A DNA stretch of 64,000 nucleotides from the NCBI RefSeq assembly GCF_048403405.1, contig NZ_CP183129.1; one strand, given 5' to 3'. The notes beneath the pieces are model-generated. The model saw nothing but the letters and a program-made list of their open reading frames with translations, was not told the DNA's origin and ran no database searches. The DNA comes from Escherichia coli. Its GTDB lineage: Bacteria; Pseudomonadota; Gammaproteobacteria; Enterobacterales; Enterobacteriaceae. A program made the position numbers and the translations under genes. Numbering within the stretch: position 1 is the stretch's first letter; the number at the start of each line of letters is the position of its first letter. Of the stretch, positions 55,820 to 56,060 are shown one piece after another.

Positions 55820-56060
55820 GAATAACTGTTCACCACTGTTCACCCTGTCATAAATATCTTTTATATCAGTATATTATAGGGTTAACAGTTATTTATGAAC
55901 TGTTCACCAAACTATTCACTGTTCACCTTTTTGATTGTTTATTGAGCTTCAAGGGTGAACAGTGGTGAACAGTTGGTGAATAGTTTTTGTGAAACTGTTC
56001 ACCCCTTAACCTTATGAATTAAAAGATAAAATATCAAAAGGTGAACAGGTGAAGGGTTAA
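55820..56060. repeat. iteron array (candidate replication origin)
   Basis: At least 8 copies of CTGTTCACC or its complement GGTGAACAG in both orientations (tandem at 55825-55844; 55900, 55919; inverted at 55954, 55964, 55975; 55995; 56040) in AT-rich context. Confidence 0.8.

Follow-up and report, generated by a model that had tools for sequence, protein, structure and literature searches.

A mirror-symmetric iteron array downstream of rep as the probable replication origin of a capsid-forming PICI integrated at fis in Escherichia coli

Introduction

The replication origin (ori) of Gram-negative phage-inducible chromosomal islands (PICIs) has been described as two sets of iterons placed around AT-rich DNA, just 3' of the rep gene (Fillol-Salom et al. 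2018, PMC6092414). Experimental support comes from the island EcCICFT073, for which a cloned rep-ori replicon formed colonies on selective agar at the restrictive temperature, though in smaller numbers than under permissive conditions, a plasmid with rep deleted formed none, and the rep-ori plasmid grew in DH5alpha without a helper phage (PMC6092414). A second point of reference is phage P4, in whose genome annotation the 8-mer TGTTCACC is named 'ori type 1 repeat' and occurs six times in ori (9310-9413) and ten times in crr (4291-4590); crr directly follows the alpha gene, and ori lies 2.3 kb upstream of it. The present analysis concerns an iteron array at positions 55826-56056 of a 64-kb stretch of Escherichia coli chromosome (the window), which most probably represents the replication origin of a 15.3-kb capsid-forming PICI (cf-PICI) integrated at fis. 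Judged by homology and co-variation, the array is also the cognate site set of the origin-binding domain of Rep, the initiator encoded directly upstream.

Iteron Copies and Sequence Context

The exact 9-mer CTGTTCACC is found nine times in the window against 0.58 copies expected, and none of 100 dinucleotide-preserving shuffles of the window contained nine or more. Eight of the nine copies cluster within 223 bp (55826-56048), five on the plus strand (55826, 55836, 55900, 55919 and 55995) and three on the minus strand (55954, 55964 and 56040), with the first beginning 14 bp past the rep stop codon TAA (55810-55812). A search allowing one or two mismatches, combined with reading of the sequence, added four degenerate iterons, namely TGTTAACC at 55880 (minus), TATTCAC at 55913 (plus), TATTCACC at 55975 (minus) and GGTGAAGG at 56048 (minus), which brings the array to 12 sites. 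An earlier note on this DNA had reported at least eight copies of the 9-mer, in both orientations, within about 240 bp after the replication gene and separated by AT-rich stretches, and both observations are borne out: the GC content falls from 51% in rep to 32% in the intergenic region (55813-56196), and to 20% and 19% in the inner spacers of the array. The ninth exact copy (54533-54541) lies within rep and spans codons T-V-H-H, and an inverted copy that differs at one position is found at 54502; such a lone occurrence is compatible with chance.

Neither a sigma-70 promoter nor an intrinsic terminator was predicted in or beside the array. The sole terminator-like site found nearby is located at 56460-56490 on the minus strand, with none between rep and the array, and a comparison with Rfam families gave no match anywhere in the island. 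Of 5426 complete E. coli genomes, 686 contain a match to the array by itself and 496 contain the stretch comprising rep and the array at a coverage of at least 80%; the array is also kept in 79 of 80 relatives from IMG/VR. Since the IMG/VR loci are close relatives (Rep 88-100% identical), too alike to tell sites from spacers, a genome scan across species was needed.

Mirror Anatomy of the Array

The sites form six plus/minus pairs whose dyad centres all fall between 55940.5 and 55942, so that the array can be described as one imperfect palindrome of two inverted six-site modules. The left module (55827-55927, plus strand) contains sites at 55827(+), 55837(+), 55880(-, degenerate), 55901(+), 55913(+, degenerate) and 55920(+), and the right module (55954-56055, minus strand) contains sites at 55954(-), 55964(-), 55975(-, degenerate), 55996(+), 56040(-) and 56048(-, degenerate). 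At the outer end of each module stand two sites 10 bp apart; a 35-bp spacer with a GC content of 19-20% separates them from a single site of opposite orientation, and a gap of about 12 bp then leads to three inner sites spaced at about 10 bp. After inversion, the two modules are 75% identical.

Three AT-rich spacers interrupt the sites. The left inner spacer (55845-55879, 20% GC) is a candidate melting site and contains the weakest predicted duplex of the region, a 25-mer at 55854-55878 (-22.3 kcal/mol) that is less stable than every 25-mer sampled across the window. The central 26-bp spacer (55928-55953, 27% GC) carries the dyad axis at about 55941, and the right inner spacer (56004-56039) has a GC content of 19%. 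Beyond the last site, the right flank GTTAAAACGCAAAAATTTTAATTT (56056-56085, 84% AT) is similar to 'cttaaacgcatattttttaattttata', which adjoins the outer iteron pair on the 3' side in loci of Klebsiella, Pectobacterium, Yersinia, Rahnella and Kluyvera whatever their iteron type, and it is possibly an unwinding element or a promoter. When folded as a single strand, the array forms a long imperfect hairpin of -50.6 kcal/mol, compared with -24.2 +/- 3.3 for shuffled sequences (z -8), which is an automatic consequence of the mirrored arrangement of the sites.

The Initiator Protein Rep

The rep gene (53995-55812, plus strand), annotated as a coding sequence in the identical record NZ_CP103479, encodes a protein of 605 amino acids. 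A BLASTP comparison aligned its residues 113-595 with residues 290-771 of the P4 alpha protein at 48% identity (E 8e-164), and its only Pfam matches are D5_N, DUF5906 (the P-loop core), PPV_E1_C and Pox_D5. The alpha protein reportedly binds type I iterons through a C-terminal origin-binding domain. Residues 497-593 of Rep, encoded by 55483-55773 on the plus strand, match PDB entry 1KA8, the C-terminal domain of P4 alpha (phmmer, E 1.8e-24); the molecule in this entry is named 'putative P4-specific DNA primase', and the domain is the winged-helix origin-binding domain of alpha reportedly described by Yeo et al. 2002. By these homologies, Rep is a helicase of the superfamily 3 (SF3)/D5 type with a C-terminal winged-helix origin-binding domain.

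The priming function of alpha, on the other hand, is not recognisable in Rep. Residues 1-289 of alpha, which comprise a zinc ribbon and a Toprim primase, gave no BLASTP alignment with Rep, and no primase domain was detected in Rep by Pfam or NCBIfam, the sole NCBIfam match being 'primase_Cterm', which covers the helicase part and scored under the cutoff. Profile-profile comparison (hhalign) of the N-terminal 145 residues of Rep with alpha-type N-termini returned a probability of 0.1%. A MAFFT pairing of GQKLAAAG with GQKKAAAAA, considered as a sign of homology between the Rep N-terminus and the alpha primase, is unsupported and was rejected in view of the negative BLASTP and hhalign results. 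Assigned to PHROG 2850 (function unknown), the N-terminus adopts a Toprim-like fold of 120 amino acids that lacks the catalytic Glu and the DxD motif. Given that no primase domain is detectable, the 'primase' label appears to be inherited from the family name. The designation of this gene as a primase/helicase in the earlier note is thus upheld for the alpha-type helicase, which together with the origin-binding domain stands behind the Toprim-like domain, and is not supported for the primase. From its sequence, Rep most likely acts as a helicase that binds the origin and whose Toprim-like domain is inactive.

Comparison with the Tested Origin of EcCICFT073

The EcCICFT073 element was analysed at NC_004431 1377749-1389210, with coordinates taken from the supplement of PMC6092414, where its attachment site is given as ycfD-phoQ. 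Its Rep is 49% identical to that of the island, with the N-terminal domain common to both, and the two elements also have in common int, an AlpA-type regulator, an Icd-like gene, DUF4222 and rep itself. The EcCICFT073 array (L084 7011-7240) displays the same 2-1-3 | 3-1-2 mirror, with the order, orientation and offsets of the sites as in the island, so that the architecture of the island array is that of an experimentally validated PICI origin. The differences concern specificity and host element. EcCICFT073 uses the iteron TGTCTACC whereas the island uses TGTTCACC, and the DNA-binding domains are only about 38% identical; EcCICFT073 is a classical PICI at ycfD-phoQ, whereas the island is a cf-PICI at fis known from sequence.

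The general features of PICI and cf-PICI origins are likewise found here: the array follows the initiator gene directly on its 3' side and places two sets of iterons around AT-rich DNA, and its host element carries int, an AlpA-type regulator, rep, att repeats and its own capsid, protease, portal, HNH, small terminase (TerS) and large terminase (TerL) genes. The supplement of PMC6092414 contains none of the iteron strings reported here, a result that does not cover Fig. 2a of the paper itself, and a search of the accessible literature for TGTTCACC together with 'iteron' found no paper.

Comparison with ori and crr of Phage P4

Both modules share 77% identity with the P4 ori core (9306-9418), the right module at z 21.7 and the left module, taken as its reverse complement, at z 16.4; identity to the P4 crr units is 70-72% for the modules and 71-72% for the right module. 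A joint alignment of both modules (the left one reverse-complemented) with the P4 ori core and the two crr units is collinear; the order common to the modules and the P4 ori core is three sites, 12 bp, one opposite site, CCTTTAAC with an AT-rich spacer, and two sites. No second iteron cluster is present in the 15.3-kb island, where the only other copy is the single one inside rep. Thus, the array stands in the position of crr, has the internal organisation of ori, and consists of two inverted copies.

With P4 ori, which was compared for its type 1 repeats only and not for its type 2 repeats, the island shares the 8-bp iteron, the 3-1-2 order of six TGTTCACC sites (present twice in the island, inverted), 77% identity over about 108 bp, and an initiator with homologous helicase and origin-binding domains. 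In contrast, P4 ori is a single module that additionally needs the distant crr, whereas the two modules of the island are inverted, adjoin each other and follow rep, and a distant crr with the same iterons is lacking. P4 alpha is a primase-helicase with a zinc ribbon and a Toprim domain bearing EGYATA and DxD, which island Rep does not have. Similarly, P4 crr directly follows an alpha-type gene and consists of type 1 iterons in two copies of a related module, but these are 120-bp repeats in direct orientation, lying 180 bp apart, in which the order of the sites is rearranged, whereas those of the island abut and are inverted about position 55941. The earlier proposal of a probable island origin is therefore supported by the PICI-type arrangement and by the site-by-site agreement with EcCICFT073; its further description as the classic ori arrangement of PICIs and P4-like elements applies to PICIs and not to P4, where it is crr that follows alpha and ori lies upstream.

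Fixed Geometry and Switching Iteron Specificity

A scan of one genome per species yielded 282 relatives, of which 80 loci were kept. Short-class Reps, defined as proteins of about 585-635 amino acids without the primase region, occur in Klebsiella, Citrobacter, Kluyvera, Raoultella, Pluralibacter, Pectobacterium, Serratia, Rahnella, Yersinia, Edaphovirga, Erwinia and Oceanisphaera. Nearly all short-class loci contain a single array directly past the stop codon, and the layout recurs across Enterobacterales, with EcCICFT073, vB_KppS-Ant and about 25 further genera or species showing it. Within 5 kb on either side of the gene, 23 of 24 short-class loci have one cluster only, the remaining locus (L100) having too few exact copies to call. 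The offsets of the sites from the stop codon are nearly fixed in this class, at about 15, 25, 68, 89, 100 and 108 for one module and 142-153, 163, 184, 228 and 236 for the other.

The iteron sequence itself is variable. At least seven lineage-specific 8-mers were found (TGTTCACC, TCTCCACC, TGTCTACC, TATCTACC, TGTCCGCC, TGTCCACC and TATACACC), along with iterons of reverse polarity in two loci (TGTATACC and TGAACACC), and within any one locus all sites switch together. In the alignment of C-terminal domains, a loop of the DNA-binding domain, KRK-TKHG-LRSN in island Rep, varies with the iteron type: all users of TGTTCACC, including P4, have TK(H/Q/L)G-(I/L)(R/Q)(S/T)N, users of TCTCCACC have STKGN-MRSN, and three of the five loci with TGTC-type iterons, from Kluyvera georgiana and Serratia, carry a five-residue insertion (RGPDKGR, KKATRGR). 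EcCICFT073 has the Kluyvera iteron TGTCTACC yet lacks the insertion. The Rep of Kluyvera georgiana is 76% identical overall to that of the island, uses TGTCTACC, and has the loop CTRGPDKGRTISN where island Rep has TKHG-LRSN; by sequence comparison, this pair is a near-natural specificity swap. An AlphaFold model of the DNA-binding domain has low confidence (predicted local distance difference test score, pLDDT, 50.7) and was used for the order of secondary-structure elements only; in it, the variable loop would sit at the tip of a beta-hairpin after the second long helix and would be the 'wing'. Concerted change of the sites, fixed geometry and a co-varying protein loop are together what would be expected if an initiator binds these sites.

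Long-class genes encoding primase-bearing alpha proteins in Xenorhabdus and Photorhabdus (L105-L158) are followed, about 40-260 bp past the gene, by a single ++-+++ | ---+-- array, and a second iteron cluster was not found within 5 kb in these loci. These single arrays suggest that the palindromic composite origin is the rule in the alpha/Rep family and that the split ori and crr of P4 appear to be the exception.

At least three unrelated N-terminal domains were also observed on the same helicase and origin-binding chassis (L090-L104, L150, L160, the window and L002): the island type (MKxAPN...IIFAGSDAW), a type of about 130 amino acids containing 'SDALFSCVYxWVNGH', and the zinc-ribbon/Toprim primase of P4 alpha. 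This distribution suggests modular swapping of a priming or recruitment domain among Reps.

Proposed Mechanism and Alternative Explanations

P4 replication is reportedly bidirectional, and dyad-symmetric origins are familiar from viruses with SF3 helicases, such as site II of simian virus 40 (SV40) large T antigen and the E1 sites of papillomaviruses. These viral origins resemble the island array in having an SF3/D5-class initiator and inverted arrays of short sites flanked by AT-rich DNA; they differ in having no sequence relationship to it and only four to six sites over about 30 bp, as against 12 over 230 bp. In a model along these lines, the C-terminal winged-helix domain of Rep would bind the 12 TGTTCACC-type sites after induction. 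Each six-site module would receive one SF3-type helicase hexamer, one site per subunit, and, the modules being inverted, a head-to-head pair of hexamers would be loaded and would unwind the DNA in both directions, with melting predicted to start at the spacers of 19-27% GC. Primers would probably be supplied by host DnaG, as Rep has no recognisable primase; such priming is consistent with the helper-free growth of the EcCICFT073 plasmid in DH5alpha, as the Rep of that island is likewise primase-less.

Several considerations weigh against this picture. Deletion of ori in EcCICFT073 'significantly reduced' colony formation and is not described as abolishing it (PMC6092414). Among these PICIs, the experiments concern EcCICFT073, and the origin reading of this island, and of its iteron type in a PICI, is drawn from sequence. 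According to the P4 annotation, the similar array after alpha, crr, is an auxiliary cis site and not the start site, so that position alone is no proof of initiation. The double hexamer and the assignment of six sites to one hexamer are analogies, the melting site is predicted from base composition only, and the Toprim-like N-terminal domain may possess cryptic primase activity.

If the array were a crr-like auxiliary element, it would be bound by Rep and needed in cis while synthesis started at a separate, iteron-free site. Its place after an alpha-type gene, its duplicated structure and the 70-72% identity of its modules to the crr units all agree with such a role, and P4 is said to have an alternative origin, ori2, inside alpha. 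However, no second iteron cluster exists in the island or within 5 kb of rep in the other short-class loci examined, the modules resemble crr less than the P4 ori core and form an inverted, not a direct, repeat, and the first half of alpha, which codes for the primase and holds ori2 in P4, is absent from island rep. In addition, only one array, again palindromic, accompanies the alpha-type genes in Xenorhabdus and Photorhabdus. An auxiliary role in place of initiation is accordingly regarded as improbable.

Still less credence is given to a purely regulatory or copy-control site, through which Rep would switch the morphogenesis genes downstream on or off, or would pair island copies by handcuffing, with no origin role. 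The array does lie between rep and the next plus-strand gene (56197) with no terminator-like site separating it from rep, and plasmid iterons commonly combine origin and regulatory functions. Nevertheless, neither the array nor its immediate surroundings yielded a promoter-like site, the homologous region of EcCICFT073 acts as an origin, and regulation would add to an origin role and not replace it. Finally, a hairpin or cruciform signal acting apart from Rep binding, as a single-strand initiation site, packaging site or attenuator, is scarcely plausible despite the strong fold (z -8), because the hairpin follows automatically from the mirrored sites, has no Rfam match, and would not be expected to show 8-mers that switch in concert and track the Rep DNA-binding domain while the arms retain the spacing of protein-binding sites.

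The Host Island and Neighbouring Features

The window belongs to the E. coli chromosome, and its sequence in this stretch agrees exactly with NZ_CP103479, whose annotation places the island between yhdJ and fis. The first part of the island encodes a tyrosine integrase, a helix-turn-helix (AlpA-type) regulator, YlcI/YnfO, an Icd-like protein, DUF4222 and the 'DNA primase family protein'; three small genes with no assigned function follow, and then the major capsid protein, HK97 protease, portal, head-tail connector, HNH, and small and large terminase genes. No tail or lysis genes are present in the annotated island. An 80-bp exact direct repeat covering the fis 3' end forms attL at 49801-49880 (L001 5902-5981), with its partner attR at L001 21187-21266, outside the window, which gives an island length of 15,285 bp. 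Gene-content definitions of cf-PICIs are provided by Alqurainy et al. (bioRxiv 10.1101/2022.09.08.507074) and Moura de Sousa et al. (PMC10085698), and by its gene content the host element is a cf-PICI.

Several further features were recorded in and around the island. A tandem GTGCAGTCA-N3-GTGCAGTCA lies just upstream of int (50009-50029) and again just within attR, and these are probably integrase arm-type sites. An unannotated plus-strand frame of 348 codons (52333-53379), of which only the last 68 codons are annotated (Icd-like), contains the YlcI/YnfO gene on its minus strand. The next plus-strand gene after the array is an 86-codon open reading frame (ORF) at 56197 (PHROG 1957, function unknown), directly preceded by a tandem AAATTAGAT AAATTAGAT AAAATAG (56163-56186) that is among the least stable duplexes of the region. 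Between the origin and the capsid gene, two minus-strand genes of 169 and 258 amino acids occupy a patch of 36% GC (56492-57807); they are related through PHROG 5789 (function unknown) and could be accessory or anti-phage cargo. The PADLOC defence models gave no match for these genes and two further island ORFs. Two 44-nt direct repeats (82% identical, L001 20465-20508 and 20769-20812), each with a short hairpin, are situated beyond the end of the window between the last island gene and attR, and may be a packaging or regulatory signal. An IS1 copy beside acrS (47835-48532; L001 3936-4633) lies just outside the island.

Implications

PICI origins of this form were already described in 2018, and current understanding is not overturned. 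The additions made here are the mirrored anatomy of the 12 sites, the match of iteron and module to the P4 ori core, the lack of a crr partner, a geometry conserved throughout the family while the iteron specificity switches, and the evidence against Rep as a primase. The origin and the initiator-binding code would define a minimal replicon for a common E. coli satellite, and the comparative series offers a natural specificity-swap set in which one winged-helix scaffold and one geometry are combined with at least seven 8-mers that track one protein loop.

A broader joint reading is tentative and, as a whole, rather unlikely: P4 and cf-PICI initiators would recognise each other's origins, Rep would be a DnaG-dependent, primase-less derivative of alpha, and P4 ori and crr would descend from a single ancestral palindromic origin whose copies became dispersed. 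Cross-recognition is conceivable because the TGTTCACC iteron is common to the cf-PICI and P4 and their origin-binding domains are homologous. If this reading were true, a P4-like element and a cf-PICI residing in one cell could cross-activate, titrate or exclude each other, which would amount to replication-level incompatibility or piracy between satellite families, and the ancestral single palindromic origin would persist after both short and long genes of the alpha family.
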